Shown here: positions 13,046 to 57,851 of the stretch, piece after piece
How the letters are laid out: each line of letters begins with the position of its first letter
How positions within the stretch are numbered: the first letter of the stretch is position 1
Program-made: the position numbers and the translations under genes
DNA from: an uncultured Mollicutes bacterium
GTDB taxonomy: Bacteria; Bacillota_I; Bacilli_A; ML615J-28; CAG-313
NCBI GenBank assembly: GCA_900538885.1
Contig: UQAI01000001.1
Span: 25,862 to 89,861, forward strand
Direction of reading: 5' to 3'
DNA: 64,000 bases
The notes under the pieces: model-generated
The model's database searches: none
The model's input: the letters and a program-made list of their open reading frames with translations, nothing else
Told to the model about the DNA's origin: nothing

Positions 13046-16000
13046 ATGGCAAGTGGTTTTAATGAAGCAACTAGAGTTCAAATGCCTGCTCTAGTTCATT
13101 TACAAAGATTAGGCTATACATACGTCGGAAAAATAACCGAAGATCAAGCTGGTGTTGTTTATGATCCTGACACCAATATTTTAATCAAAGTCTTTAAAGA
13201 ACAATTTTGTAAGTTGAATCCTGGTCATGAAGGTGAAGCAGAACAAGTACTGAAAGATATTAGAATAGAATTGGATAATGATGATCTAGGTCGTTCATTC
13301 TTTAAAAGAATGCAAATGGTATCACCAGTAAAAATCATAGATTTTGATAATATTCAAAATAACGTATTCCACTATACTGCTGAATTTACATGCAAAAGAG
13401 ATCAAGATGAATTTAGACCTGATATTACATTATTTGTTAATGGATTACCTTTATGTTTTATAGAAGTTAAAAAGCCAAACAATAAAGGTGGATTGATCGC
13501 TGAAAGTAATAGAATGAACAATCAGAGATTTCCAAATAAGAAATTTAGAAGATTCATTAACATTACCCAACTTATGATTTTCTCGAATAATATGGAATAT
13601 GATACTCTTGGAGGAATTGTACCAGTTCAAGGTGCTTTTTATTGTACTGCTTCAAGAAATAAGTCTTTTTTCAGTTGCTTTAGAGAAGAGAATCCTGGCA
13701 ATGCCTCAGTTGCGCCATACAATAAAAATTATCCTTATGAAGAGATTGATGCTGTTGTAGAAAAGAAGATTTTATCTGATTTCAATTGCCAAGTAATTCA
13801 TACATCTCCAGAATATCAAACAAACCTAAATATCAATACACCTACAAATAGAATTTTAACTTCTATGTGCAGTAAAGAACGTCTTATGTTCTTGCTAAAA
13901 TATGGAATCGCATATGTTAAAAGTGAACGTGAAGTTGATGGTAAAATTGAGAGTACAGACCAAAAACATATTATGCGTTATCAACAGATGTTTGCTGCTT
14001 TGGCCATTAGAGAAAAATTAGATAAAGGATTGACAAGCGGTGTTGTTTGGCATACTCAAGGTAGTGGAAAAACCGCACTATCTTATCATCTTAACCATGT
14101 ATTAACTGATTACTTTGCAAAGCAAAATAAAGTAGCAAAATTTTATTTTATCGTTGATAGACTTGATTTATTAGAACAAGCTTCTCAGGAATTTGAAGCC
14201 AGAGGATTGGTTGTAAAAACTGCGAACAGTAGATCAGAATTGATGGCGCAATTTAGAACTAACCAGTCTTTAGAGGGTAATAGTGGTGCCAATGAAGTAA
14301 CTGTTGTTAATATCCAAAGGTTCGAAGAAGATAAAGAGAAAGTTACACTTCCTGATTATGCTACGAATTTACAAAGAATTTTTATAATTGACGAAGCTCA
14401 CAGAGGATATAAGCCAGAGGGTAGTTTTTTAGCTAATCTATTCGATGCTGATCCTAATTCTGTCAAAATCGCATTAACAGGTACACCTTTATTGAAGGAA
14501 GAACGTTCATCTTGGAAAGTATTCGGTACATATTACCATACATATTACTATGATAAATCGATTCAAGATGGATATACATTAAAGGTATTAAGAGAGCCTG
14601 TTGAAACATCATATAAAGAAAAATTATCTGAAATATATGAAAAATTAGAAACACTAGTTCAAAAGAAGGATGTCCAAAGAACACAAATAATTGAGCATGA
14701 TGTTTATGTTAAAGAACTTTTGAGATATATCATTTCAGATTTAAAACAGTTTAGACAAATCCAAGGTGACGATACTCTTGGAGGCATGATCATTTGTGAA
14801 ACAAGTGAGCAAGCAAGAAAATTATTCGCTTTCTTTGATAGCATTCAAAAAGAACTAAATGAGAATGCGTCGTTAAAGAGTTATTTTAAGGCTGGATTAA
14901 TATTGCATGACAGCGATGATAAAGAAACTAGAAAAAAGACTGTTACAAATTTCAAGAAGAACATGACAATCGATATTTTAATCGTATTTAATATGCTATT
15001 AACAGGCTTTGATGCTCCAAGACTTAAGAGATTATATTTTGGCAGAAAATTAAAAGATCACAATTTATTACAAGCTATTACGCGTGTGAATAGACCATAT
15101 AAAGAAAATAGATATGGTTATGTAGTTGATTTTGCTGATATTAAGAAAAATTTCGATGAGACTAACGAAGCTTATATGAAGGAATTAAACCGATTCAATG
15201 ATCCTGGCGAAGTTGGCGAAGGAAACGAGACTGACACATTCAAACAAGTTATAGAAGATAAAGACGCATTGATTCAACAGATGCAAGAGGTAAAGCAAAT
15301 TTTATTTGCTTATACAACGGATAATGCAGAGGAGTTTAGTTCTGAAATCTCTACGATTGAGGATAAAGAAGAACTTTTGAAATTGAAAAAAGCACTGGTA
15401 TCAGCTAGAGATTGTTGCAACATTGTAAGAACATTTGGTGATGATGAATTAAAAGCTAAATTTGCAGCAATGGAGATTACTAAACTTCCTTCATTAATAT
15501 CAGAAGTGCAACATCACATTGACAGCATAAATCAAAAAGAAGCATTAGCTGAAAGTGACTCAACAAAGCAATTAATTAATGAAGCAATGCAAGATATTAC
15601 TTTCAAGTTTCAAATGTTGACAGAAGAAGAAATGAAAATTATTTCAGGAGGCCAGGAGTTAGAAGATAAGTGGAAGAAGACAATTCGTTCATTTACTGAA
15701 AACGAGGACCAAGAAGATCCAGAATACATTACTTTACGTCAAGCATTTATTGAAAGATTCAAAGAACATGGTTTTGTTGTTGAAAGTGTAAGCCAATTTG
15801 AAAATTATACAAAGGAGCTAGATGAAATATTAAAGAAGCTAGCTGAATTGCAAAAGAAGAATAGTGCACTGTTGAAAAAGTACAATGGTGATGCTAAGTA
15901 TGCGCGTGTCCATAAGAGAATTAAAGAAGAAAACGAAAGCAGAAAAGCTAAAGGTGAGAAGCCACTAATTTCTGAATATGATGTCGATATTATGAATGCG

Positions 16001-16213
16001 CTAAAAATTATTAAAGATGAGATAGACCAAAAAGTTTACGATAGGCATGATATCTTGAGAAAAGATGTTTACTTTGAGCAAACAGTTATGGTACATATCA
16101 ATAATGGTATTGATAGATTAGGCTTTGAAAATACTAGGGAAGATAGATTGTTTATTCAATCAAGACTAAGCACCCAGTATTTAAATCAATACCATAATAC
16201 ATATGCAGCATAA
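13046..16213 (+). CDS. hsdR: Type I restriction enzyme R subunit (HsdR)
   Basis: HsdR N-terminal nuclease domain, SF2 helicase motifs TQGSGKT and IIDEAHRG, 1055 aa. Confidence 0.9.
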   Translation: MASGFNEATRVQMPALVHLQRLGYTYVGKITEDQAGVVYDPDTNILIKVFKEQFCKLNPGHEGEAEQVLKDIRIELDNDDLGRSFFKRMQMVSPVKIIDFDNIQNNVFHYTAEFTCKRDQDEFRPDITLFVNGLPLCFIEVKKPNNKGGLIAESNRMNNQRFPNKKFRRFINITQLMIFSNNMEYDTLGGIVPVQGAFYCTASRNKSFFSCFREENPGNASVAPYNKNYPYEEIDAVVEKKILSDFNCQVIHTSPEYQTNLNINTPTNRILTSMCSKERLMFLLKYGIAYVKSEREVDGKIESTDQKHIMRYQQMFAALAIREKLDKGLTSGVVWHTQGSGKTALSYHLNHVLTDYFAKQNKVAKFYFIVDRLDLLEQASQEFEARGLVVKTANSRSELMAQFRTNQSLEGNSGANEVTVVNIQRFEEDKEKVTLPDYATNLQRIFIIDEAHRGYKPEGSFLANLFDADPNSVKIALTGTPLLKEERSSWKVFGTYYHTYYYDKSIQDGYTLKVLREPVETSYKEKLSEIYEKLETLVQKKDVQRTQIIEHDVYVKELLRYIISDLKQFRQIQGDDTLGGMIICETSEQARKLFAFFDSIQKELNENASLKSYFKAGLILHDSDDKETRKKTVTNFKKNMTIDILIVFNMLLTGFDAPRLKRLYFGRKLKDHNLLQAITRVNRPYKENRYGYVVDFADIKKNFDETNEAYMKELNRFNDPGEVGEGNETDTFKQVIEDKDALIQQMQEVKQILFAYTTDNAEEFSSEISTIEDKEELLKLKKALVSARDCCNIVRTFGDDELKAKFAAMEITKLPSLISEVQHHIDSINQKEALAESDSTKQLINEAMQDITFKFQMLTEEEMKIISGGQELEDKWKKTIRSFTENEDQEDPEYITLRQAFIERFKEHGFVVESVSQFENYTKELDEILKKLAELQKKNSALLKKYNGDAKYARVHKRIKEENESRKAKGEKPLISEYDVDIMNALKIIKDEIDQKVYDRHDILRKDVYFEQTVMVHINNGIDRLGFENTREDRLFIQSRLSTQYLNQYHNTYAA

Positions 16214-16225
16214 GGAGAGAAATAT

Positions 16226-17848
16226 ATGAATATTAAACAAAAAACAATTGACTTAATTGATGCATTGAAAGCCACTTGTCAAACATACGGAATGGGTAAT
16301 GATGGAAATGAATATAAAATTATTACACAAGTATTTTTGTATAAGTTTTTAAATGATAAATTTGGACATGAGATTAAAGAAAAGTCAGTAAAAATTGCTA
16401 AAGCAGCTAAATGGGAAGAAGAATATGAAAGCATGAGTAATGAAGAAAGGTTGGATTTATTTGATAAGCTTTCTCCTGATATTCCTCGATTATATCCTGA
16501 ACACCTTATATCGTTTTTATGGAATCAACAAAGTAAAGGTGAATTTGACTTAATTTTCGATAGCACAATGATAGATATAGCTGAGAAGAACATTGATATC
16601 TTCTCGACTATGACAGATGAAAAAACTAGAATTCCTTTATTTGAAAAATTAACCGTATTTGTTACTGATGAAGCTAAAAGAGCGCCATTTGCACGTGCTT
16701 TAGTTGATAAATTAGCAAACTTCTCTTTTGAAGAGGCGTTTTCAGAACACTATGACTTTTTTGCAACAATTTTTGAATATTTGATTAAGGATTACAATAC
16801 AGCAGGCGGTGGAAAGTATGCTGAATATTATACTCCACACTCAATTGCTACAATTATGGCTAGACTATTAGTTGGAGAAACTGATAATTTGCATGACATA
16901 GAAGTATATGATCCATCTGCTGGCACAGGAACATTATTGATGGCTCTTGCACATAAAGTTGGTGAAGATAAGTGCACCATTTATTCTCAAGACATTTCAC
17001 AAAGAAGTAATAAGATGTTGAAATTAAATTTAATATTAAATAATTTAGTTTCATCACTTGATCATGCTATTCAAGGTGATACTTTGGTTTCACCATTTCA
17101 TAAAAATGATGATGGCACTGAGTTAAAACAATTTGACTTTGTTGTTTCTAATCCACCATTCAATATGGATTTTTCTGACACCAGAGATATAATCGCAGCA
17201 AAGACAACTAGATTCTGGGCAGGCGTTCCAAATATTCCAAAGAAAAAACTTGATGGTATGCCAATATATACATGTTTTATACAACATGTTGTTAATTCTT
17301 TAAAGAAAACTGGAAAGGCAGCTATCGTTGTACCTACGGGTTTTTTATCATCTAAAAGTGGTGTTGAAGGTACCGTTTTATCAAAATTAGTGGAAGAGAA
17401 GATAGTATATGGATGTATAAGCATGCCTTCAAACGTTTTTGCTAACACCGGAACTAATGTGTCAGTTTTATTTTTAGATGGTTCTAAATCAAGTACAGAT
17501 GTTATGCTTATAGATGCTTCAAAATTAGGTGAAGAATATAAGGAAGGAAAGAATCAAAAGAGAAGATTAAGAGATTTTGAAATTAATCAGATAGTTGATT
17601 CATTTATTAATAAAGTATCAAATGACGGCTTTTCTATTAACGTTAGTTTGGATAAGGTAAAAGAAAAGAAAAATTCATTATCAGCTGGAATGTATTTTAA
17701 AGTCAAAACTGATAATCCAACTATATCTACCTCAAAATATAATGAAATCGTCTGTGATTATATTACAGCATTGGATGAATACAAGCTAAATGCAGATAAT
17801 TTTGTTGAGTGGGCGAAAGATAGTTTATTAAAGAAGAATGATAAATAG
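16226..17848 (+). CDS. hsdM: Type I restriction-modification N6-adenine DNA methyltransferase subunit (HsdM)
   Basis: HsdM N-terminal domain, SAM motif DPSAGTGTLL, catalytic NPPF motif (VVSNPPFNMDF). Confidence 0.9.
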   Translation: MNIKQKTIDLIDALKATCQTYGMGNDGNEYKIITQVFLYKFLNDKFGHEIKEKSVKIAKAAKWEEEYESMSNEERLDLFDKLSPDIPRLYPEHLISFLWNQQSKGEFDLIFDSTMIDIAEKNIDIFSTMTDEKTRIPLFEKLTVFVTDEAKRAPFARALVDKLANFSFEEAFSEHYDFFATIFEYLIKDYNTAGGGKYAEYYTPHSIATIMARLLVGETDNLHDIEVYDPSAGTGTLLMALAHKVGEDKCTIYSQDISQRSNKMLKLNLILNNLVSSLDHAIQGDTLVSPFHKNDDGTELKQFDFVVSNPPFNMDFSDTRDIIAAKTTRFWAGVPNIPKKKLDGMPIYTCFIQHVVNSLKKTGKAAIVVPTGFLSSKSGVEGTVLSKLVEEKIVYGCISMPSNVFANTGTNVSVLFLDGSKSSTDVMLIDASKLGEEYKEGKNQKRRLRDFEINQIVDSFINKVSNDGFSINVSLDKVKEKKNSLSAGMYFKVKTDNPTISTSKYNEIVCDYITALDEYKLNADNFVEWAKDSLLKKNDK

Positions 17849-17859
17849 GAGCTGTAAAT

Positions 17860-19116
17860 ATGAAACTAAGAAATATATGTAAAATAGTTACAGACTCAAT
17901 TAATCCAAAAAAACAAAAAAATAAGCTTTTCGAGCTATATAGTTTGCCCGCTTTCGATGATTTCAAAAGGCCTGAAAATGTATATGGCTCAGATATCGAG
18001 AGCAATAAGTATTTGGTTCCAGAAAAAACAATATTGTTTAATAAATTAAATGTTAGATTCAAACGTATATGGAGGATCACCAACAATAACCAGGATAATA
18101 AAATATGCTCAACTGAGTTTCTACCAATAATTGTTGATGAAAAAATAGCCGATTTTGATTATGTTTATTTTTTATTGATGTCAGATCAAGTCACAGAATA
18201 CTTATGTGCACCAACAACTAATACTTCTGGAAGTCATAAGAGAATAGATCCAGATTTTCTACTTGATATGGAAATATCCTTGCCTGAATTAGACGAGCAA
18301 GTTCGCGTTGCAAGAAAACTAAAAACGCTAGATGATGAGGTTCAGTGTTGTTTTGATTTTGAAACTAAATCATTTAAATTTTTAAAAGATACATATGATT
18401 ACTGGTTTGTTTCTTATAACTTTCCTAACAATAATGGTGATGCATATAGTGAAAATGGTGGAACATTTGTAGAGGACAAAGAAACAGGTATTAATTATCC
18501 AACAAAATGGAGTTTTAATAAGATCGGACAGTATTTTAATGTTGTGAGAGGTGTAAGTTATAAGCCTGAAGATACTTCGGAAATAGAAACCGATATTCAT
18601 ATGCCGTTATTAAGATCAAATAATATTTACGACGAGAGATTAATACATGAAGATATAGTGTTTGTTGATAAAAAAAGGGTAAGTGAAGAACAAATATTAC
18701 ATGCAAATGATGTGTTTATTTGTATGTCTAATGGCAGTAAAAATTTAATTGGTAAAAATACAATTATTCCATATGATACAGAATATGCCTTTGGAGCTTT
18801 TTGTGCTAAAATTAAGAATATAGATTGCGATTATTTAGGCTTTATAAACTTATTCTTTAAGAGTAATTATTATAAAGCTTATATCGCACAAATATGTGCA
18901 AACACTAGTATAAATAATATCGGAAATGAAATGTTAACTGACTTAAAATATCCATTACCTCCGCTAAATATCGCTAAAAAGTTTAATGAAATATATTTAA
19001 AAGTAATGTCTGAAGTCGGGAATGCGCATAAATTTATGTTATCGACAAGAACATTATTAGAAAAACATATATTTATGGACATGAATGGAGTACTCATAAA
19101 TAGTTCAGAAGATTAA
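17860..19116 (+). CDS. hsdS: Type I restriction-modification specificity subunit (HsdS), two target-recognition domains
   Basis: 418 aa, duplicated TRD/conserved-helix architecture, immediately downstream of hsdM. Confidence 0.85.
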   Translation: MKLRNICKIVTDSINPKKQKNKLFELYSLPAFDDFKRPENVYGSDIESNKYLVPEKTILFNKLNVRFKRIWRITNNNQDNKICSTEFLPIIVDEKIADFDYVYFLLMSDQVTEYLCAPTTNTSGSHKRIDPDFLLDMEISLPELDEQVRVARKLKTLDDEVQCCFDFETKSFKFLKDTYDYWFVSYNFPNNNGDAYSENGGTFVEDKETGINYPTKWSFNKIGQYFNVVRGVSYKPEDTSEIETDIHMPLLRSNNIYDERLIHEDIVFVDKKRVSEEQILHANDVFICMSNGSKNLIGKNTIIPYDTEYAFGAFCAKIKNIDCDYLGFINLFFKSNYYKAYIAQICANTSINNIGNEMLTDLKYPLPPLNIAKKFNEIYLKVMSEVGNAHKFMLSTRTLLEKHIFMDMNGVLINSSED

Positions 19117-19156
19117 AAAAGCGACTTAGCTCAATTACGAGTTAAGTCGCTATTTT

Positions 19157-19357
19157 TTATTCTGGAATATATTCCATTATATCTTTGAAGTCACAACTAA
19201 GTGTCTTGCAAATTTTGCAAAGCACATCAGTAGTTACATTTTGACCTTTGGTCATTTTAGCAATTGAAGAGGAACTAACACCAGAGAGCTTAATAAGCTC
19301 TTTTTTGTTTAGGTTCTTATCGATTAATAATTTCCATAATTTGTTATAACTTATCAT
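19157..19357 (-). CDS. XRE/Cro-family HTH protein, last gene of the minus-strand three-component operon
   Basis: 66 aa HTH_3 (ELIKLSGVSSSSIAKMTKGQNVTTDVLCKICKTL); 1-bp gap to upstream ATPase gene. Confidence 0.55.
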   Translation of the reverse strand: MISYNKLWKLLIDKNLNKKELIKLSGVSSSSIAKMTKGQNVTTDVLCKICKTLSCDFKDIMEYIPE

Positions 19358-19358
19358 T

Positions 19359-21188
19359 TTATGCTTTCCTTACATTCTTTAAGAAGCCGTATCTACCTTT
19401 GTTTTCTTTTTGAGTGAACTTGTAGATAACAACATCATCGTTAATTTCTAATTCAGGCAATTCGCTGTATTTTGTGTTTTCAATTATAACGATCTGGTCT
19501 GCTGTTTCAAGATTTATTAAATAATCAAAGAATCCTTTTCTAACGTTATCTGAATCCTCATCTTTATCTTCAGGAACTGATAATCCCTTAAGTGGTGAAT
19601 CTAAGAACCAGAAGCAGCCTTTGTTGGCACTTTTTTCTTCTATGTACTTCCTTAAAAGAAGAATAAGCATGGAGTTGGTGAACGCTTTATATCCTTTACC
19701 ACGTCTGATCTTATTCTTATTGTTAACTATTAAATCTAACTTGGTTTCAGTAAAGTCAATAGTACTGATATTTGGGTATTTAACGTCAGTAAAGATTTGA
19801 ACACCGTTATCAATTACATATTGACCTATGATTGAGAATAGAATTTTCTTTGCTTCAAATTTTAGTTTAGGTACATCATCACCTTTTTGGTATTTCTTTA
19901 AGTCTTCTTCAAGATCAACGTCATTTGCTCCTAGTTCATCAATCGCAGACTTAAGTCGAATATACTCTTCATAACTTTGAATTTTTTTCGCAAGTTCTGT
20001 TCTCTTAGGAGTAAGGACTTCATTGATTTTTGTTTTGTTGATTTCTATTGTTTCTTTATAGACAGCAATTAGATCCCCATCATCATCCAATGTATCTTTT
20101 AGCATTGCTGATGTCTCATCTAGTTCATTAAGATTGTTAACAACATTTCTTAGTTCGACTTTTGCAGCTTCGATATAAGAAGTAGGGTTTTTTGGAGTCA
20201 TTTCATGGTCACAGTAAGGGCATTTAGATTTTGTTGTCTTGTGGCCTATAGAGACTTCATTATTAACGATAAATGTTAATCTATTAATTTCCTTTTGATA
20301 GTCACTTTTTAATTCTTCATATTTAGAGAATATTAATTCATTTTTTTGTTGTTTCTTTTGAAGAGTCATTAAGTTAAATGATGTAGTGGTATTTTCAGAT
20401 GTTAAGCGTTCAATCTCATCGTTTAACTTTATAAGACTCTCATTTAGTTCTTGAATAACAGTTTCTAATGAAGCTAGGTCAATGCCTGATTGCTTTAGTT
20501 TATCTTCTAAAACTTCCTTCTTTTTAGACATAGCTATTCTATGTTCTGAAATGTAGGCGATTACTGCATTTCTTTTTGCTTTTTTGATTTCGTCAGATTC
20601 ATCTTTTTTTAGATAGTCTTCTAGCGTATTTCCAGTAAGGAAATATATTAATGCAGCAAGATATGTGGTCTCTCCATTTTGTTGAAGAAGTACGGATTTA
20701 GGCTTGTCAGCTTTATCTTCATCAATTAGGAATGTTTTTTTAATCGTTCTCCAAGAAAATCTTTCTGGATCGCCATCAATATTAGAAGGAATCTTAAGGT
20801 CATCCTTTAATCCTAATATCTTAAGCATCAATTTATCTATCGTTTTATTATTTTTTTTACCTTCCTTAAGAACATATTCGCCGCTTTCAATTTCAGGATT
20901 GTCACAAGAAACTGTGGTTTTAGAAGTGCCTTGTACTCTGGTTAGTGTGATGTCACCGTATTGAGTTTCAATTATTAGGGTGATGGTATCAAACCCATCT
21001 GACTCATCGAATGGAGCATGATCGTCATCGTTTTTAGCACCAAGTACATAATCAACGCATTTATAAATACAGGATTTACCAGTATCAGAAGGTCCAGCGA
21101 TAATGGTTAGTTTATTTCCGAATTCAATTTCTGATGGTTCAGCATTTGGTCCGGTAGCAATAAGCTTTTTAAGTTTAATAAAACCCAT
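19359..21188 (-). CDS. Rad50/SMC-like ABC ATPase with central coiled coil and CxxC zinc-hook (LmuB / ABC-3C ATPase-like)
   Basis: Walker A GPSDTGKS at N-terminus, ~250-aa heptad-rich coiled coil with CPYC at its midpoint, C-terminal Walker B/D-loop FWFLDSPLKGLS. Confidence 0.6.
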   Translation of the reverse strand: MGFIKLKKLIATGPNAEPSEIEFGNKLTIIAGPSDTGKSCIYKCVDYVLGAKNDDDHAPFDESDGFDTITLIIETQYGDITLTRVQGTSKTTVSCDNPEIESGEYVLKEGKKNNKTIDKLMLKILGLKDDLKIPSNIDGDPERFSWRTIKKTFLIDEDKADKPKSVLLQQNGETTYLAALIYFLTGNTLEDYLKKDESDEIKKAKRNAVIAYISEHRIAMSKKKEVLEDKLKQSGIDLASLETVIQELNESLIKLNDEIERLTSENTTTSFNLMTLQKKQQKNELIFSKYEELKSDYQKEINRLTFIVNNEVSIGHKTTKSKCPYCDHEMTPKNPTSYIEAAKVELRNVVNNLNELDETSAMLKDTLDDDGDLIAVYKETIEINKTKINEVLTPKRTELAKKIQSYEEYIRLKSAIDELGANDVDLEEDLKKYQKGDDVPKLKFEAKKILFSIIGQYVIDNGVQIFTDVKYPNISTIDFTETKLDLIVNNKNKIRRGKGYKAFTNSMLILLLRKYIEEKSANKGCFWFLDSPLKGLSVPEDKDEDSDNVRKGFFDYLINLETADQIVIIENTKYSELPELEINDDVVIYKFTQKENKGRYGFLKNVRKA

Positions 21189-21190
21189 AA

Positions 21191-21628
21191 TTATTTCTTA
21201 ACTCCTTTCGTTCTATCTTTTAATTTTTGTATCGTAATAGGCTTCATTTCATCTATGATGTTAGAAGCGAATTTTTTATATTCTATAGAGTAATCATCGT
21301 TCATTTCTGACACATATGCCTTACCAGAATCGGTAATTGCGTATATAAAACCTCTATCTGGATTGTTCGTTACAGTAGCAAGACCTCTGAATAATAGTTC
21401 TTTTAGCGAGTTCTTTATAAGCTTGCGCTGTATTGTGAACTCGTTAAGTGGAAATGAGCAGACACCGTTTAAGTTTGATTCACCAAATCCATAATGTTCA
21501 GCATATATGGCAAAGAAGTCCAGACGCGCTATTTCATCTTCGTTTAGATAACTTTGTTTATCTAAAATCATAAGAAGGCGCATAGAAACTTCAAATTCAG
21601 TATTAAAAAGCTTTGTCATTATAGCCAC
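21191..21628 (-). CDS. small alpha-helical middle component (LmuC-like) of the three-gene ATPase system
   Basis: 145 aa, overlaps upstream gene by 10 nt and sits 2 nt from ATPase gene; size and position match the middle component of ABC three-component systems. Confidence 0.4.
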   Translation of the reverse strand: MAIMTKLFNTEFEVSMRLLMILDKQSYLNEDEIARLDFFAIYAEHYGFGESNLNGVCSFPLNEFTIQRKLIKNSLKELLFRGLATVTNNPDRGFIYAITDSGKAYVSEMNDDYSIEYKKFASNIIDEMKPITIQKLKDRTKGVKK

Positions 21629-22581
21629 CTTACCTTTCCGTCATTAACAAGCATGTGGACCATGCCCATTTTCTCTTCAGTTCCTACCATACCATTGCCA
21701 GCAGTAGTGAAATAACTTTTTGAAAAGGTAATAACCATCACTTTATCCATTGTCTTATTTAATTTTTCATAAGCATCAGGAACCATTGAATTTGTATAAA
21801 GTCTTATTGCTTTATAAATCTCGTCTTTCATAGATGAAAATTCCTGTTCACCATCGTAGAAGAAATTTCTAACTTGTCTTAGCACCGTTTCAGCACTATA
21901 AAAGGCTTCACGATGTATTTGTAATTCCATTTGATAAACTGGATGACCATCCAAATCACCTATCGATGATATTGATTCACCAGTCTTTTGCGAGTAAACA
22001 GATAATAGTGCAGTTACATATTCACTTTCCATATCGTCGGGATTATCTGGGACAGTAAGTGCTGGTGGTAGAGTGTATTCAGTTCCACCAATTCTAACTT
22101 TATTGCCTGGAAGGAACACAGCTTTTTTAATAGATGTTTTTCTATTCTTCTCTGAACGCTCTTGAAGTAAATCTGCAAAGACATTAGCTAATTCTTCAGG
22201 TAAGTCAATACCTGCAAGAGTGACTCCTTTCTTAGCAAAGTTATCAATAAGTAAGCCTATGGCTTCATCAGTCAATTCAGCTGCATCATATACATCTTGA
22301 AAGTACTCTGATGTTATTTTACTTTTTAAATATCTGGCATCCTTAATTGGCATGTCGGTGTCATTTGTTTCATTAAGCAATTTTTCACAGTAGTTTTCAG
22401 ACTTCATTGTTATGTCATTAAGAATTTTATTATCGATTAATGAAATATCTGTAAACCAAGTTATTACATCTTGGTAAATAAGACGTGCACTTAATCTATG
22501 TGTTTCAGGATCGACTTGTATTTGGCTGGCAAATGCATTCTTAATTAAGTTTATAAACTCGTATATTTTCATTATTATCAC
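21619..22581 (-). CDS. first gene of the three-gene operon; candidate sensor/effector (LmuA-like position) with no recognisable catalytic motif
   Basis: 320 aa, translationally coupled to the next gene; no nuclease/TIR/Sir2/protease signature visible by eye. Confidence 0.4.
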   Translation of the reverse strand: MIIMKIYEFINLIKNAFASQIQVDPETHRLSARLIYQDVITWFTDISLIDNKILNDITMKSENYCEKLLNETNDTDMPIKDARYLKSKITSEYFQDVYDAAELTDEAIGLLIDNFAKKGVTLAGIDLPEELANVFADLLQERSEKNRKTSIKKAVFLPGNKVRIGGTEYTLPPALTVPDNPDDMESEYVTALLSVYSQKTGESISSIGDLDGHPVYQMELQIHREAFYSAETVLRQVRNFFYDGEQEFSSMKDEIYKAIRLYTNSMVPDAYEKLNKTMDKVMVITFSKSYFTTAGNGMVGTEEKMGMVHMLVNDGKVRWL

Positions 22582-22670: not shown

Positions 22671-22974
22671 AGGCAATTAGCAGCGCAGCTAACGCCATTA
22701 TTCCTTTTGATAATTATACCAAATTCCAGGCATTTTTGCAAACCAAACAAGCTGCAAACTATGGCTGGTCTCAAATTAAAAGTTTGTGATGAGTATATTT
22801 CTTATCGTGTTAAGTAAGTTGACATAGCAGAAGATATCGCTGCGTCCCACATGTCACTTATGATACACACAATATCTGCAGAAAACTGTGGGAGTGGACT
22901 GCAACATCGAAACGGAAGTTCTAGTTTAGGACTGCCTATCTTTTGTTGCACCCAAAATTCGGTTAGCTCTGCAT

Positions 22975-23012
22975 GAAGGACCTCCGTTTCGCTAAAGAAA
23001 TTTAACATTCGG
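22975..23012 (+). terminator. terminator-like hairpin (cctccg...cggagg + T6) whose 3' arm is the GGAGG Shine-Dalgarno of the downstream gene; candidate attenuator
   Basis: inverted repeat and T run seen in sequence; ATG at 23023. Confidence 0.4.
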
Positions 23013-23022
23013 AGGTTTTTTA

Positions 23023-23682
23023 ATGAGATTACTTAAGACGCCTGCAAACAAGAGATTCAGGCAAGAAGAAGATGGTACTAAGACACCAATATTCACTATC
23101 TATTTTGATAACGGTGACAAGGTCATCTACGAGCCAGGTAAGGCTACCACAGTTTATGCCAAAGGTGGTAGCTGGGTTCAAATCGAAGAAGGCATAACAG
23201 AACTAACAATCAAGCAACTCTACAACGATGAAGACAATGAGATTAAACAAAACATAAGGGATTCACATTGTGAAACTGCTGGTATGGAAAAAGAAAGACA
23301 AGCTAAAAGAGCAGAATGGGCTAAGGCGCATCCTGATGCTGATGACAGCGAAAATCCATACAACGCTACTCATAAGCTAGTCAGCTTGGACTACCAACCA
23401 TCTGAAGATTTCGATTCAGATCATTCAGAGCTAGAGCTTGAAATAGCCAAGAAGCAACAAGACGAAGAGGATAGTGGCGATGATGAAAGAGATCAATACA
23501 TAGAAATGATACGCGCATACGTAGCCACATTGCCTAAGAGTCAACAAGAGCTATATCAACTTTATTACATAGAAGGCTTAAGCCAAACGCAAATCTGTGA
23601 AAAGTTGCATCTATCGAAAAGCACCGTATCAGAACGCTGCAAGACGCTAGAACAAAAACTTTTCAAAAAATTTAAGAAATAA
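23023..23682 (+). CDS. prophage regulator with C-terminal sigma-70 region 4 HTH (ECF-sigma-like early activator)
   Basis: C-terminal LPKSQQELYQLYYIEGLSQTQICEKLHLSKSTVSERCKTLEQKL matches sigma70_r4 pattern; acidic central region. Confidence 0.5.
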   Translation: MRLLKTPANKRFRQEEDGTKTPIFTIYFDNGDKVIYEPGKATTVYAKGGSWVQIEEGITELTIKQLYNDEDNEIKQNIRDSHCETAGMEKERQAKRAEWAKAHPDADDSENPYNATHKLVSLDYQPSEDFDSDHSELELEIAKKQQDEEDSGDDERDQYIEMIRAYVATLPKSQQELYQLYYIEGLSQTQICEKLHLSKSTVSERCKTLEQKLFKKFKK

Positions 23683-23690
23683 AAATAAAA

Positions 23691-23732
23691 CCCCGAACTT
23701 TTGGTGCAGAAGTCGGTCCTAAGACTTGAGGA
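23691..23732 (+). promoter_or_regulatory. ECF-sigma-type promoter-like element CCGAACTT-N16-TCCTAAGACTTGAGGA (copy 1)
   Basis: GAACTT -35-like and TCCTAA -10-like with 16-nt spacer; near-identical copy at 57340-57380. Confidence 0.4.
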
Positions 23733-23769
23733 AGTAAAGATCCTCGAAAATCAATAGGAGGTAACGCTT

Positions 23770-23979
23770 ATGTTAAACAAACACAAAGTTCGCATCAACA
23801 TAGCGAACAGCAGTGGCGTTAATGCCCAGGTGCTTGAAAGCGTAACAGAGTGTATCCCTAAGAAACTATTCAATAAATGGTTCGGTGATAAGAAGCGAAA
23901 AGTCCTAATCATCGCACCTGCTGAGTCAGTGGCTGAAGTGGAAATACATGAAGTTAAAGCCGATAAGCAAGGAGGGTAG
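23770..23979 (+). CDS. hypothetical small prophage protein
   Basis: 69 aa ORF with GGAGG RBS; no homology recognised. Confidence 0.3.
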   Translation: MLNKHKVRINIANSSGVNAQVLESVTECIPKKLFNKWFGDKKRKVLIIAPAESVAEVEIHEVKADKQGG

Positions 23980-23982
23980 AAC

Positions 23983-24729
23983 ATGCCACCATCATTACAT
24001 TGTTTACTAACGGCTAGTGGTAGCAAGGTCTGGTTGTATGAATGTAAGGCCATGCCAAACCTATGCAGAGGTTTACCGAGTGAAACATCAGAAGCTGCTG
24101 AAATGGGTTCTGAATGCCACTTATACAGTGAATCTCTAATAAGGGAAGCATTGCACATCATTGATTATGACGAGCCTATAAGAAGCCCGGCCGAAGTAAA
24201 GAAGACATTAAAGTACTACAGCCCAGAGCTAGTAGCCATAGCACAAGAGTACGTTAACAAGATCATCGAGGTTGTTAATTACGAAACCAAGAGAACTGGT
24301 AATAAACCTCTAGTGCTATTAGAGCAGCGACTTGAAATGGACTACGCTCCCGATAGCTTTGGAACCCTTGACTTTGGCTGCATCTCATCTGATGGGATGA
24401 ACCTTACGATTGGAGACCTAAAAGCGGGAAGGATGTCCGTAAGTAAAGATACGCCTCAAACCAAAATTTATGCTCTTACGGCTTACAAACTTTACTCAAA
24501 AGTGTATCCGATAAGATTCATTAGAATCTTTATCTGTCAGCCAAGAGCAGGTGGCATAAAGGAGCTTGTCCTAACACCTGAAGAGTTACTTACCTTTGAA
24601 AGGGAAGTATTGATACCAGGAGCTAAGGCTGCACTGGAAGCCACAGAAGATGATGCTACACCATGCGATTACTGCAAGTGGTGCTTAGCTGCCAAATACG
24701 GCAAATGTAAAAAATACAAAGGAGAATAA
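23983..24729 (+). CDS. Cas4/RecB-like PD-(D/E)XK nuclease with C-terminal cysteine cluster (DUF2800-like phage exonuclease)
   Basis: D..D.K motif LDFGCISSDGMNLTIGDLKAG and C-terminal CDYCKWC...C. Confidence 0.45.
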   Translation: MPPSLHCLLTASGSKVWLYECKAMPNLCRGLPSETSEAAEMGSECHLYSESLIREALHIIDYDEPIRSPAEVKKTLKYYSPELVAIAQEYVNKIIEVVNYETKRTGNKPLVLLEQRLEMDYAPDSFGTLDFGCISSDGMNLTIGDLKAGRMSVSKDTPQTKIYALTAYKLYSKVYPIRFIRIFICQPRAGGIKELVLTPEELLTFEREVLIPGAKAALEATEDDATPCDYCKWCLAAKYGKCKKYKGE

Positions 24730-24731
24730 AA

Positions 24732-25697
24732 ATGTTAAATATCAGTGAAGGTGTTAAGAAGACACCACTTAAAGTAGTAATTTACGGTCCCGAATCAATC
24801 GGTAAGACCACATTAGCATCTCAATTTCCATACGCATTAATCGTGGATGTTGAGAACGGTAGTAATTCACTAAACGTTAGACGTATCCGCTGCGATAAGT
24901 CGTGGGAAGAGTTACTTGAAACATTAAAGGAAATCGTAGCTACACCAAATGTGTGTAAGACAGTGGTAGTTGATACTGCTGACTGGGCTGAATACCTATG
25001 TTCCAAGTATGTCTGTGAGAAGTTCAAGAAACAAAACATAGACGACTTTGGCTATGGCAAGGGATACACATACCTAACAGAAGAGTTCAAGAAGCTTCTT
25101 GATGTGTTAGATGAAGCAATCGACGCAGGAATCAATGTTGTTGTTACAGCACACGCTAAGCCTCGTAAGTTCGAGTTACCTGAAGAGATGGGTGCATTCG
25201 ATAGATATGAGCTTAAGCTAACCAAGAACACAGCACCAATCGTTAAGGAATGGTGTGATGCATTGCTATTCTGTAACTTCAAGACTTATGTCATCACAGA
25301 TGAAGCAAATAAGAAGAAGGCTCAAGGCTCTAGAAGAACTATCTATACGACTCACAGCGCTGTCTATGACGCAAAGAATAGACACAACCTTCCAGAAGAA
25401 ATGGATATGACATTCGATAACCTTAAACCATTATTCGAAGAAGTAAAGACTGCAGCACCAGCTGAAGCAGCACCTGCTCCTATCAATGAAAAGAGAGCGA
25501 TGATCGTCAATTTAGAGAAGATGATTGCTGAAGCAGGTATCACAACCGATGAACTTCAAGAAGTAGTAGCCTCACGTGGCCACTATGGAAAAGAAGTGGA
25601 AATTGCAGCTTATTCAGATGATTTCATTGCACGTTGGGTAATGCCTAACTGGAGCAAGATCGTAGCAACAATCAATAAGACAAAGGCAGGTAATTAA
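24732..25697 (+). CDS. Sak4-like RecA-fold recombination ATPase
   Basis: Walker A YGPESIGKTTLA near N-terminus, Walker B VVVDTAD; typical phage position before an SSB-like gene and helicase. Confidence 0.55.
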   Translation: MLNISEGVKKTPLKVVIYGPESIGKTTLASQFPYALIVDVENGSNSLNVRRIRCDKSWEELLETLKEIVATPNVCKTVVVDTADWAEYLCSKYVCEKFKKQNIDDFGYGKGYTYLTEEFKKLLDVLDEAIDAGINVVVTAHAKPRKFELPEEMGAFDRYELKLTKNTAPIVKEWCDALLFCNFKTYVITDEANKKKAQGSRRTIYTTHSAVYDAKNRHNLPEEMDMTFDNLKPLFEEVKTAAPAEAAPAPINEKRAMIVNLEKMIAEAGITTDELQEVVASRGHYGKEVEIAAYSDDFIARWVMPNWSKIVATINKTKAGN

Positions 25698-54105: not shown

Positions 54106-56784
54106 ATGAAAAAAATTGGTAGATTTATTGTTTTATCTATTTTTATGATGTCAGTTATCTTTATGACTGGTTGTAGCAACAACACTCCTTATATTGGAGA
54201 AAATGGAAACTGGTGGGTTGGCGAGTCTGACACTGGGGTTCCGGCACAAGGTGAAAAAGGTGATAGTGGCGAAAAAGGTGACAAAGGAGATAAGGGTGAC
54301 AAAGGAGATAAAGGTGACACTGGGGATTCAGTAACTGTTGTTTCAGTTAAAAAAACAGGAACTGAAGAAAACGTCGATACATATACAATCACTTTCTCTG
54401 ATGGAAATACTTCAACATTTACTGTTACAAATGGTGCTGATGGCGAATCAGTTAATGTTGAATCAGTAACTAAGATTGGTTCTGATGGATTAGTTGATAC
54501 TTATAAAATAATGTTTTCTGATGGTACTGAATATACTTTTACAGTAACTAACGGAGCTGATGGCGAGTGCATAACAATTGAATCAATTGAAAAAACTGGT
54601 TCAGATGAATTAGTTGATACTTACACAATTACATTATCTGACGGAAACAAATTCACATTTACCGTTACTAATGGAAAAGACGGATTAACTCCTTATATTG
54701 GTCCTAATGGCAACTGGTGGATTGGCGATGAAGATACTGGCGAATTCGCTTCTTATAACTATGAAACTAGAGATATTACTGATGGATTAACATTTACACC
54801 TATGACCATAAATGGAAAAGGTGGTTTTGTTGTTACTGGTTTTGATCCTGTTGTTGCATACGGCAGTGAAATTTATAATCTTTTAGATAACTATCCAGAA
54901 CAATACGCGTCAACTTATGGAATTATTAATATTCCTGATTATTTAGGTACAACTCCTGTTATTGGAATCAAAGCTGAAATGTTTAAAAACGTTGATTATA
55001 TCGGCAAAGTTTCACTTTCAAGAAATACAGTTTATCTTGGAGATAATGTTTTTAATACTTGCTCAAATTTACAAGAAATTGATTTTAATGGAGCACCATT
55101 AGAAAAACTTCCAGACTATGCTTTTTATAAAACAAAACTTCAAAGCATTGATTTACCTGAAACTTTAGAAACTTTAGGTGCATATTCTCTTGCAAATACT
55201 AAATTAAAATCTATTGAATTACCAAATTCATTAACGAGATTAGAAAGTCATGCTTTATATGGAAATACTATAAAAGATATTGATATTAATAATGTTACTT
55301 ATTTTGCAGATTATTCATTATATGGAATTCATGGTAATCCTATTTATTTAACGAATGATGTTGAATATGTTGGTAGTTACGCTTTTGCTGGAACTTATGT
55401 TTATATCGAACAGGAAACAATCCCTACAACTTGGGAAAGCAATATTGCAGGTACTAGTACGTATTATGGTGGAATTGTTACTCCTAATTGTTTAATTAAT
55501 GATGAGTATATTTACTCTAAGAACGGAAATGAAATAACAGTATTAAATTATATAGGAACTGATAAACGAATTGAAATTCCTAGTTTAATTGATTCTCTAC
55601 CAGTTACAAAAATTGGATACGGTTTCAACTCTGTTAGTGAAATTGGACTTAATGTTTATGATAATATTTATACTGAAGAAAGTGGCGAAAACTATTTCAG
55701 TTATATGGTAAGAGCAGAACAAGTAGTAATTCCAAATTCAGTAAAAGCAATTGATTTAGGAGCATTCAATAATTTATTTACTACAATTTATATTCCTTCA
55801 AGCGTAGAAAAAATAAGCACTTATGCTTTAATCATTGACAATGATGACTTGTCATCAAACTTTATGATTTTTGAAGCTAATTCATATCCTACATTGATTA
55901 AAGGTTGGGTAGATGGCGAAAATGAAGGCGAAATTGATGGTGCACTATGGTTTGATGACGAAAACTATATTTGCTATTATCGCAATATCAAAAATACAAA
56001 ATGGGAAGATGTTTATTTTAATGAAGAAACAAATTCATACTATATTAAAGATTTATTTGGTTATACTTTAATTGCTTATATGAACCATGAAGTTGGTAGT
56101 AAAATTGTAATCGAATCAACTTTCAATAACGAAACTGTTCATACTATTAGAAAAGGTGCTGTTTATGGATTCTTTAATCCTAAATCCTTAATCATAGAAG
56201 ATGGAATTAAAAAGATTCAAAAGTATGCGTTTATGATGTGTGCAGACTTCAATTATGCTTATATTCCTAGCAGTGTAACAACAATTAATGCCTATGGATT
56301 TGCTGATGTTTGTTATAGATTCTATACAAATCACACATCAAAACCAGATGAATGGGATACACAATGGGCTGGTTCTTCATCTAGTTATACAATTACTTAT
56401 AAAACTGAATTAGGTGAGATTCCTACAATATCTTTTGATGGAAAGTATGAATATGCAGTTCTTGATGATGGAACAGTAAGTCTAGTTAAGTATTTGGGTT
56501 CTTCATCAACATCTACAATTAAAGTTCCAAGAACAATTGATGGATATACAGTAACTGAAGTAAAGAGCAATTGTTATTCAATTTCATACTCTTCTACAGT
56601 TTACATTTATATTCCTAAATCAATTCTTGTGTTAGAAGAAAATGCATTTTATCGCTCTTACACTTATTATACAACTTATGTTTATTTTGAAGCTGAATCT
56701 GCTTTACCTGGCTATCACTCAAAATTCACCAATACATCTTCTAGCTATTTAACTAAATACTGGAATAGAAGTATCGGATACTAA
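54106..56784 (+). CDS. surface lipoprotein with collagen-like GDK repeats, three tandem ~45-aa repeats and a BspA/internalin-type leucine-rich-repeat domain
   Basis: signal peptide plus lipobox [30 protein letters not shown], repeated TYTITFSDGN.TFTVTNGADGE units, C-terminal LRR periodicity. Confidence 0.7.
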   Translation: MKKIGRFIVLSIFMMSVIFMTGCSNNTPYIGENGNWWVGESDTGVPAQGEKGDSGEKGDKGDKGDKGDKGDTGDSVTVVSVKKTGTEENVDTYTITFSDGNTSTFTVTNGADGESVNVESVTKIGSDGLVDTYKIMFSDGTEYTFTVTNGADGECITIESIEKTGSDELVDTYTITLSDGNKFTFTVTNGKDGLTPYIGPNGNWWIGDEDTGEFASYNYETRDITDGLTFTPMTINGKGGFVVTGFDPVVAYGSEIYNLLDNYPEQYASTYGIINIPDYLGTTPVIGIKAEMFKNVDYIGKVSLSRNTVYLGDNVFNTCSNLQEIDFNGAPLEKLPDYAFYKTKLQSIDLPETLETLGAYSLANTKLKSIELPNSLTRLESHALYGNTIKDIDINNVTYFADYSLYGIHGNPIYLTNDVEYVGSYAFAGTYVYIEQETIPTTWESNIAGTSTYYGGIVTPNCLINDEYIYSKNGNEITVLNYIGTDKRIEIPSLIDSLPVTKIGYGFNSVSEIGLNVYDNIYTEESGENYFSYMVRAEQVVIPNSVKAIDLGAFNNLFTTIYIPSSVEKISTYALIIDNDDLSSNFMIFEANSYPTLIKGWVDGENEGEIDGALWFDDENYICYYRNIKNTKWEDVYFNEETNSYYIKDLFGYTLIAYMNHEVGSKIVIESTFNNETVHTIRKGAVYGFFNPKSLIIEDGIKKIQKYAFMMCADFNYAYIPSSVTTINAYGFADVCYRFYTNHTSKPDEWDTQWAGSSSSYTITYKTELGEIPTISFDGKYEYAVLDDGTVSLVKYLGSSSTSTIKVPRTIDGYTVTEVKSNCYSISYSSTVYIYIPKSILVLEENAFYRSYTYYTTYVYFEAESALPGYHSKFTNTSSSYLTKYWNRSIGY
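54376..54705 (+). repeat. three tandem ~135-bp intragenic repeats in the lipoprotein gene
   Basis: near-identical protein units; DNA periodicity visible. Confidence 0.7.
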
Positions 56785-57265: not shown

Positions 57266-57339
57266 ATTAAGTAATAATTAATCATTTTATTAAGCTTTAG
57301 AGTGAAATCTAGAGCTTTTTTTATTTTCTGAATTCAAAT

Positions 57340-57380
57340 CCCGAACTTTTGACACGATTTTCGGTCCTTAGACTTGAGGA
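57340..57380 (+). promoter_or_regulatory. ECF-sigma-type promoter-like element CCGAACTT-N16-TCCTTAGACTTGAGGA (copy 2)
   Basis: about 35/42 identity to 23691-23732; spacer contains TTGACACGATTT also found in the junction repeat family. Confidence 0.4.
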
Positions 57381-57391
57381 GGTATGAACCT

Positions 57392-57634
57392 ATGAATTTA
57401 AAAGAACAAATAAGAACCTTAAGTCAAAAGGGTTATGGCTATAAGAAGATAGCTAAAGAATTGAACATTTCAATTGGATCAGTAAGAAACGCTTTAGTTG
57501 AGACACCAAGCGATGAGGTGTGCAAGAACTGCGGAAAGAAGCTAAAGTTTGTTGTTGGTAAGAAAAAGAAGACATTCTGCTGTGATAGCTGTAGATACGA
57601 TTACTGGAACAAACAAAGAAGGGGTGGCAAGTAA
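57392..57634 (+). CDS. small HTH plus C4 zinc-ribbon DNA-binding protein preceding the recombinase pair (possible regulator or directionality factor)
   Basis: YGYKKIAKELNISIGSVRNAL HTH and CKNCGKK...CCDSC; GGAGG RBS. Confidence 0.45.
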   Translation: MNLKEQIRTLSQKGYGYKKIAKELNISIGSVRNALVETPSDEVCKNCGKKLKFVVGKKKKTFCCDSCRYDYWNKQRRGGK

Positions 57635-57635
57635 T

Positions 57636-57851
57636 ATGACTCCTTTGGAAAGATATATGGCTTCAGTTAAGGTTCTTGAGAAGATGGTTAAGGAAGGCTT
57701 GATTGATGAAAAAGAGTACATGAAAGTCGAATCGTTCCTAGCTAAAAAACACTGTATCAAACCTGACAGCATTTACCGTTCAAATCACTTGCTATTTCAG
57801 AGAAATAGAGTGATAGATAGTAATGCAAAAAAGGAGGCAAATAATGGATAG
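57636..57851 (+). CDS. small protein with SHOCT-like C-terminal motif
   Basis: 72 aa; GLIDEKEYMKVESFLAKK resembles the SHOCT motif. Confidence 0.3.
   Translation: MTPLERYMASVKVLEKMVKEGLIDEKEYMKVESFLAKKHCIKPDSIYRSNHLLFQRNRVIDSNAKKEANNG

Follow-up and report, generated by a model that had tools for sequence, protein, structure and literature searches.

Two copies of a bipartite DNA element head the replication module and the recombinase module of a prophage in the 64-kb stretch of DNA analysed here, which we call the window. Comparison with sites in relatives makes it reasonably likely that a transcription factor private to the phage uses both copies as its cognate promoters, and that the modules behind them make up a delayed-early regulon. 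Direct observation covers the repeat and its conservation, the positions of the copies, the two-box anatomy and the covariation of the boxes; these are described below before the proposed mechanism is weighed against its rivals.

The duplicated element in the window

An exact search for CCCGAACTTTTG-N9-TCGGTCCTWAGACTTGAGGA returns two matches in the window, both on the + strand (23692-23732 and 57340-57380), and none in 100 dinucleotide-preserving shuffles, even at 3 mismatches. The 20-nt right half of the element alone is equally unique in the window. A preliminary description of this DNA had pointed out the duplication and given its register as CCGAACTT-N16-TCCT. Both points hold; the identity it quoted, ~35/42, was slightly high, as copy 1 and copy 2 agree at 32 of 41 positions. 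The nine mismatches comprise eight inside the central 9 nt and one A/T exchange within CCTWAGA. The search for further copies that it recommended was run with an nhmmer profile built from 12 homologous sites. The profile recovers both copies with E~1e-9 and none more in the window, where the next best match has E = 10. Pattern scans of relatives supply more than 100 sites. The parts of the two copies are as follows.

23692..23732 (+): copy 1 of the bipartite element; exact pattern match, homologues of which follow every sigma4-gene homologue examined
23692-23701 (+): -35-like box CCCGAACTTT of copy 1
23702-23712 (+): spacer of copy 1, of which only the last 9 nt (23704-23712) diverge from copy 2
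23713-23724 (+): -10-like region TCGGTCCTAAGA of copy 1, then CTTGAGGA
23726..23748 (+): hairpin TTGAGGA-N8-TCCTCGAA, directly past copy 1; the sole conserved helix among 14 aligned post-sigma4 sites
57340..57380 (+): copy 2 of the bipartite element; homologues precede the recombinase module in about 64 other loci
57340-57349 (+): -35-like box of copy 2
57361-57372 (+): -10-like region TCGGTCCTTAGA of copy 2

Copy 1 begins 10 nt past the stop codon of a 219-aa Sigma70_r4_2 gene, referred to as the sigma4 gene, and is separated by 38 nt from the 69-aa ORF that opens the replication module. Copy 2 begins 13 nt past an intrinsic terminator; 11 nt separate its end from the ATG of an 80-aa HTH/zinc-ribbon ORF, for which GAGGAGG at the 3' end of the copy is the ribosome-binding site. 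The genes and signals next to the two copies are these.

22800..23022 (+): conserved leader of the sigma4 gene, with a hairpin at 22974-23020 and an alternative partner of its 5' arm at 22908-22923
23023..23682 (+): 219-aa protein, candidate reader of the -35-like box, from Pfam, PDB profile, AF2 with Foldseek, and helix/box covariation
23770..23979 (+): 69-aa ORF, phrog_7234, first gene past copy 1
57292..57327 (+): intrinsic terminator with a 10-bp stem and a T-run, just 5' of copy 2
57392..57634 (+): 80-aa HTH and zinc-ribbon protein, first gene past copy 2
57636..57851 (+): small SHOCT_2 ORF (Pfam SHOCT_2, E=3e-6), with an inferred start; the mechanical ORF runs from 57549
57823-59187 and 59169-60740 (+): two overlapping large serine recombinase genes, both with Pfam Resolvase, Recombinase and Zn_ribbon_recom

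The replication module runs from 23770 to about 30.4 kb and comprises DUF2800, AAA_24, helicase, PriCT_2/AAA_25 primase and RusA genes. RusA is followed by a DUF1492 protein (30391) and then by HNH, terminase and structural genes. At the position of the SHOCT ORF, a syntenic gene of 69-77 aa is found in three related loci (L027-L029). Between the lysis region and the recombinase module lies an 892-aa lipoprotein-like protein with collagen-like GDK repeats (54106-56784). Beyond the recombinase pair there is a third serine-recombinase-like ORF (62794-63927, minus strand) with Recombinase, Zn_ribbon and DUF4368 matches and without the N-terminal catalytic domain.

On the other side of the sigma4 gene, housekeeping genes occupy 1-12.6 kb (trigger factor, Lon, RNase R, tRNA-Leu), followed by a type I restriction-modification system at 13.0-19.1 kb and an ABC-3C system at 19.4-22.6 kb on the minus strand. 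Defence genes thus fill 13046-22581, from tRNA-Leu to the sigma4 gene, with HsdR, HsdM and HsdS in the former system and MC2, CTD6 and an AAA_23-like ATPase (a weak, sub-threshold Pfam match) in the latter. Relatives carry other systems at the same position, namely an M78-peptidase protein, LlaJI, a HamA-containing (Hachiman-like) system or type I restriction-modification. Roughly 440 nt of non-coding sequence separate the ABC-3C system from the sigma4 gene.

Conservation and positions in relatives

In every homologous locus fetched, the same element is found just 3' of the sigma4 gene or overlapping its last codons, and the sigma4 proteins of these loci are 38-63% identical to that of the window. 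Counting all sigma4 genes examined (about 40 loci), each has a copy after or overlapping its 3' end, and the synteny of the locus, with the 69-aa ORF and the replication module, is kept throughout. The 19 non-identical sites align without gaps save for one spacer position. Their common layout starts with an A-rich flank and the box CCCGAACTTT; about 10 bases without conservation then lead to a G/C-rich 5-7-mer, after which comes CT(A/T)AGA, invariant throughout. The AAC is invariant in all 19, and its distance to CTWAGA is 19 or 20 nt, that is, it varies by 1 nt. The box lying 16 nt downstream of AAC reads CGGA, GGTC, CCGC or GGCC, not CGT, and is followed by the invariant CTWAGA.

Collection scans, which used the pattern of the commonest lineage only (CCCGAACTTN{13,14}CGGACTWAGA), gave 108 sites, 75 on metagenome contigs and 33 on viral contigs. 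On the metagenome contigs, 10 of the 75 sites are directly 3' of a sigma4 gene and ahead of the 69-aa ORF and DUF2800, and about 47 are ahead of a small ORF and two serine recombinases. A further 15 or so either lie past a terminator, roughly 140 nt 5' of an AAA_25 ATPase gene, or are on contigs too short to classify, and 3 are chance matches in GC-rich contigs. Of the sites on viral contigs, 16 follow a sigma4 gene, 17 precede the recombinase module and 0 lie elsewhere. The totals are therefore 26 sites after a sigma4 gene, about 64 ahead of the recombinase module, about 15 that are AAA_25-linked or unclassifiable, and 3 chance matches. All real sites are oriented toward the downstream genes. 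Terminators are also present 5' of the homologous sites in L001/L002, L027, L028 and of the island sites described below. One candidate site, in L003, was discarded as a chance match within a coding region of a GC-rich phage. Neither blastn of 22700-24800 nor tblastn of the 219-aa protein found a match among 50,697 phage records, and the searchable literature yielded no description of this system.

Two features vary between groups of sites. In a large clade (L021, L023-L026, L032-L035), the first box, CCCGAACTT, lies within the last sigma4 codons and encodes the C-terminal tail ...QPELL(R); in the window's clade, the sigma4 protein ends earlier and the first box is non-coding. Judged from these alignments, the DNA motif seems to dictate the tail of the protein. 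The spacer ACACGATTT of the recombinase-side copy is kept in three elements (window 57351-57360, L027, L028) with flanking proteins only about 60% identical, and the spacers of sigma4-side copies are unconserved. The conserved spacer suggests that an additional protein binds there; this extra regulator of the recombinase-side copies, binding between the boxes, may be the near-invariant HTH/zinc-ribbon protein.

Covariation of the boxes and the candidate reader

Both sites were recovered for three elements. The boxes proved to be element-specific and common to the two sites of an element, with spacers matching at 1-4 of 10 positions.

Window: -35-like box CCCGAACTTT at both sites; core 5' of CTWAGA, CGGTC; spacer identity 3/10
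Contig JBANSE010180819.1 (L016 and L027): -35-like box GTCAAACATT; core GCCGC; spacer identity 1/10
Contig Ga0209066_10000936 (L021/L091 and L029/L095): -35-like box CCCGAACTTT; core GCGGA; spacer identity 4/10

Given the low spacer identity between paired sites, simple sequence homogenisation is not the cause of the matching boxes. That each element holds both its boxes to a standard of its own suggests recognition by a trans-acting reader which is not the same from one element to the next. The recognition helix of the sigma4 protein varies in step with the -35-like box, the correspondence resting on two independent changes only.

Helix SKSTVSER: -35-like box CCCGAAC, in the window and most lineages
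Helix TKGTVSER: -35-like box CCCTAAC, in L030 and L031
Helix TRGTVSKR: -35-like box GTCAAAC, in L016

The box GTCAAAC was predicted for protein P0011 from its helix and then found in its contig (L038), which belongs to the same clade as L016. As the boxes co-vary both within elements and with the recognition helix, the element-encoded region-4 protein is the best candidate for the reader.

Two other proteins were considered in this role and set aside. The HTH/zinc-ribbon protein has a recognition helix, ISIGSVRNAL, that is near-invariant across elements while the boxes vary, and the motif is kept ahead of an ORF with the zinc ribbon only in 10 related loci; for both reasons it is a poor candidate. 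The DUF1492 protein (30391) had been named in the preliminary description as a second region-4-like protein that might act on the motif, a part of the proposal that we do not retain, since the nhmmer profile finds no motif copy near the late genes of the window. This protein belongs to DUF1492/phrog_36 and occupies the usual position of a late activator after RusA; it probably controls the late operon via a different site. The 23023 and 30391 proteins both match phrog_36 over the HTH region.

The 219-aa sigma4 protein

The 219-aa protein is composed of an N-terminal domain (residues 1-118), an acidic disordered linker (119-152) and a sigma region 4 (about 152-217). Region 4 is recognised by Pfam Sigma70_r4_2 at residues 161-202 (E=2e-9), and profile matches to PDB are confined to region 4 of FliA, SigF and SigW. 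In Foldseek comparisons, the C-terminal domain superposes on region 4 of SigF, SigL, SigE and SigW with an rmsd of 1-2 A.

The N-terminal domain has a different character. Profile searches give no Pfam or PDB sequence match for it, and no Sigma70_r2 match. The AF2 model of residues 1-118 (pLDDT 89) shows six strands and two long helices, and Foldseek finds best TM-scores of <=0.31 against PDB and 0.41 against BFVD, with no sigma factor among the matches. On this model, the domain is an orphan beta/alpha fold without region 2. As no region 2 is detectable, the protein cannot be a conventional sigma factor.

The family is rare, with 30 clusters among 5.8 billion proteins. Its genome-resolved members come from MAGs labelled Acholeplasmataceae, Erysipelotrichaceae, 'Tenericutes MO-XQ', 'uncultured Mollicutes' and 'Bacillales UBA6879'. 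No anti-sigma-like gene adjoins the 23023 gene, anti-sigmas being hard to recognise. The profile search finds no motif copy 5' of this gene either; a structured leader is present there instead. The adjoining 69-aa ORF finds no support as a possible region-2 partner, with no Sigma70_r2 or other significant Pfam match and no PHROGs region-2 similarity; its sequence appears non-helical on inspection.

RNA structures around the sigma4 gene

The sigma4 leader is ~200 nt long and ends in a strong hairpin whose 3' arm holds the ribosome-binding site, followed by a U-run and the ATG. The hairpin is seen in 20 distinct leaders, and all 9 leaders tested for it offer the 5' arm an alternative, co-varying partner about 85-100 nt 5' of the ATG, with pairings such as CGAAACGGA / TCCGTTTCG in the window and CTGAAATGGAG / CTCCTTTCAG elsewhere. 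The leader has no Rfam match. From its pairing pattern, the hairpin looks both terminator-like and RBS-sequestering, as in an attenuator or riboswitch-type design.

The shorter hairpin past copy 1 has arms that are compensatory between lineages (TAGAAGG/CCTTCTA, TTGAGG/CCTCAA, TTGAGGA/TCCTCGA). It is absent at copy 2, where the same bases form the ribosome-binding site. A start site within CTWAGA would put the hairpin at the very 5' end of the replication-module mRNA, a placement consistent with a role as a stabilising 5' stem-loop.

Promoter reading and proposed mechanism

The fixed positions of the element, its 1-nt spacing tolerance and the frequent terminator upstream are as expected of a promoter. 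A consensus scan for TTGACA-N16-18-TATAAT-like hexamers finds no sigma-70-type promoter at either copy, and in the candidate hexamer T(A/T)AGA(C/A/T) the last base is not a conserved T. From the combined evidence we infer promoter activity, a start site, the identity of the reader and possible modes of recognition of the -10-like region.

Upon induction, the 219-aa protein would be made from a gene that is itself presumably gated by the attenuator-like leader. Its C-terminal sigma region 4 would bind the -35-like box CCCGAACTTT of both promoters and recruit or programme RNA polymerase, which would start a few bases 3' of the -10-like region TCGGTCCT(A/T)AGA. Copy 1 would drive or boost the replication module from 23770, and copy 2 would drive the module of HTH/zinc-ribbon, SHOCT and two serine recombinase genes from behind the terminator. 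Replication and excision/integration functions would thereby be switched on together. The -10-like region might be read by the orphan N-terminal domain replacing region 2, by a partner or by a host sigma factor. Expression of the replication genes could also come from read-through of the sigma4 gene alone, as no terminator separates that gene from copy 1.

The preliminary description had suggested that an element-encoded sigma factor or activator drives both the early region and the recombination module. In outline this agrees with our results: a candidate two-box promoter heads both modules, and covariation singles out the 23023 protein as the likeliest reader, without the participation of 30391 that had been envisaged.

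Alternative explanations

The main rival keeps the same promoter architecture and assigns its reading to a host alternative (ECF-like) sigma or another host factor, which would tie prophage and island expression to host stress and leave the 219-aa protein otherwise employed. The AAC-N16-CGG-like spacing does resemble that of ECF promoters (PMC8103513), partial islands in which no sigma4 gene is seen carry the motif at both operons, and a host reader would likewise be expected to impose its own box variants on both sites in a host. A host reader is nevertheless rather unlikely, in view of a motif copy at the 3' end of every one of the about 40 sigma4 genes, box variants that track the sigma4 recognition helix, and the same C-type motif in hosts classed as Acholeplasmataceae, Erysipelotrichaceae and 'Tenericutes MO-XQ'. 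The remaining readings are less likely than this one. Operators for a prophage repressor or regulator (the HTH/zinc-ribbon protein or an asymmetric-site repressor), shutting both modules off together, could equally sit at the heads of two operons, and the retained ACACGATTT spacer of three diverged elements could be counted in their favour. Mycobacteriophage repressors with asymmetric operators exist (PMC1934351). However, there is no underlying sigma-70 promoter to control, the two boxes are dissimilar and show no dyad or direct-repeat symmetry, and a 1-nt change of spacing is tolerated. The HTH/zinc-ribbon protein is moreover poorly suited to this role as well, by its near-invariant helix beside varying boxes and by the 10 loci in which the motif accompanies a zinc-ribbon-only ORF, so that we regard an operator function as distinctly improbable. 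An inverted-repeat operator, CCGAA..TTCGG, was also considered and dropped, as its symmetry is not kept in other elements.

Action of the element as RNA appears very unlikely, whether for antitermination in the manner of a nut site, as a signal for processing or stability, or within a structured leader. Three points would suit an RNA element: the sigma4 mRNA probably runs on through copy 1 as its 3' tail, a conserved hairpin comes next, and in many relatives the first box is inside the sigma4 coding sequence. Yet the copies fold with unremarkable z-scores (-2.0 and -0.4), the consensus structure of 14 sites contains no pairs within or between the boxes, Rfam returns nothing for them at its gathering threshold or at E<=5, and elements B, L019 and L030 do not keep the apparent CCGAA/TTCGG stem. 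The structured RNA that the preliminary description had held out as an alternative is thus not seen across the boxes by any of these approaches. Copy 2 and the island sites, furthermore, are directly 3' of terminators and lack the hairpin, on which ground a lambda nut-type site was rejected. That the copies are attachment or recombination sites of the serine recombinases, or a functionless scar of module shuffling, is extremely unlikely. One copy is indeed tightly linked to recombinase genes in about 64 loci, and a module boundary is marked by the sequence 5' of copy 2, which is not the same in close relatives. Such sites would fit poorly with the missing dyad symmetry around a central dinucleotide, with boxes unrelated in either orientation, with conservation limited to two boxes around a free spacer, and with an orientation that is always fixed and a start codon close downstream; recombination between the direct copies would delete most of the phage.

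Comparison with known systems

Among known systems, ECF sigma factors such as E. coli sigma-E and B. subtilis SigW offer the closest likeness in the DNA-binding part. The region 4 at the C-terminus of the 219-aa protein falls in the ECF-type Pfam family and can be superposed on that of SigW, SigE and SigL, and the element resembles ECF promoters in the AAC of its upstream box (a hallmark of the class; PMC8103513) and in a G/C-rich box about 16 nt further on. ECF systems are distinguished by AAC/CGT promoters, a protein made of sigma2 and sigma4 only, a co-transcribed anti-sigma and autoregulation (PMC8103513). Of these four hallmarks only AAC and region 4 are found here, and the ECF reading of the preliminary description stands to that extent alone. 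Region 2 is replaced by 118 N-terminal residues with an orphan beta/alpha fold, the downstream box is CGG/GCC-like and followed by the invariant CTWAGA instead of being CGT, and no adjacent anti-sigma was recognised. The motif is moreover downstream and not upstream of the sigma4 gene, which argues against classical autoregulation.

Phage sigma-like factors with private promoters are already known, for example Xpf (PMC10141391) and RinA-type proteins (PMC3152322). Xpf of the B. subtilis prophage PBSX is listed as a group IV factor with sigma2 and sigma4 (PMC10141391). Like the 219-aa protein as predicted here, it is a member of the sigma family encoded by the prophage itself, and it activates a set of phage genes once induction has occurred. 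Xpf differs in possessing both sigma domains and in acting on late genes; the 219-aa protein lacks region 2, and its presumed targets are the modules for replication and recombinases. In SigO-RsoA of B. subtilis, a region-4 polypeptide needs a separate small partner for region-2 function (PMC8103513). A small conserved ORF, of 69 aa, likewise adjoins the sigma4 gene, but it has no region-2-like match, and the 219-aa protein has a large N-terminal domain of its own. RinA is a small phage protein with a region-4-like HTH that binds a dedicated promoter (PMC3152322). The phrog_36 matches of the 23023 and 30391 proteins over the HTH connect both with the RinA/ArpU/Alt/DUF1492 group, whose members sit just 5' of terS and activate packaging and lysis genes; this description fits 30391 and not 23023. 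By the profile search of the window, the motif is absent from the late region, and the 23023 gene heads the replication module instead.

At the middle promoters of phage T4, which depend on MotA and AsiA, the -35 element gives way to a box peculiar to the phage and recognised by one of its proteins, and the -10 element is left to another component. The present system has no sequence or fold relationship to MotA/AsiA, and its -10-like region, with C, A or T at the last position, is unlike the -10 element of host sigma-A. What sets the present case apart is the combination of region 4 with an orphan domain and no region 2, and a regulon of replication and recombinase genes, not late genes. Also unusual are the attenuator-like leader ahead of the factor gene and the occurrence of the same promoter in islands that show no sigma4 gene.

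Defence islands and a second motif

Four islands (L056, L068, L077 and L108) carry the motif at two sites, with no sigma4 gene seen in the recovered, incomplete sequence; further islands of the same type are L057, L063, L067, L082, L084 and L098. Their layout is defence cargo, terminator, motif, AAA_25 ATPase, DUF6933, motif, a 133-aa HTH/zinc-ribbon gene and two serine recombinases. The cargo comprises BREX PglZ/BrxL, type I restriction-modification and UvrD-PDDEXK with an endonuclease. With the motif present and no sigma4 gene seen, the reader could be a host factor or could be supplied in trans. From their gene content, the islands may be satellites that respond to a phage factor.

A second bipartite motif, CCGGCAAAA-N12/13-YGCCATTWAAC, was found at 48 sites in the loci examined and at 0 in the window (e.g. 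L108 6810, L056 5148 and 7672, L011 2937). In islands it occurs in tandem with the first motif, about 65 nt 3' of the AAA_25-side copy and about 57 nt 5' of the recombinase-side copy. In the phage contigs L009 and L011, it stands alone ahead of the HTH/zinc-ribbon gene. It may be a promoter for a different factor.

A wider and more speculative scheme, which we regard as doubtful, would make the 219-aa protein the founder of a new class of sigma-like initiation factors in phages, with the orphan beta/alpha domain standing in for region 2 in core binding or in reading the -10-like region. The islands would have copied its promoters and would sense phage infection or induction, replicating and excising like satellites, and the tandem second motif might hear a second phage family.

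Implications

If the two copies are promoters of the 219-aa protein, they would belong to a compact regulatory cassette, open to testing, of temperate phages whose hosts, Acholeplasma- and Erysipelotrichaceae-like bacteria, are little studied. The cassette would consist of a leader switch, a region-4 factor and two private promoters, and a single factor would couple phage replication to excision. It raises the mechanistic question of how region 4 together with an orphan domain alone specifies a -10-like element. The factor-promoter pairs, with their natural specificity variants CCCGAAC, CCCTAAC and GTCAAAC, are potential orthogonal expression parts. On the same premise, the islands that share the motif and show no sigma4 gene would add a new instance of mobile defence islands that take their cue from a phage.
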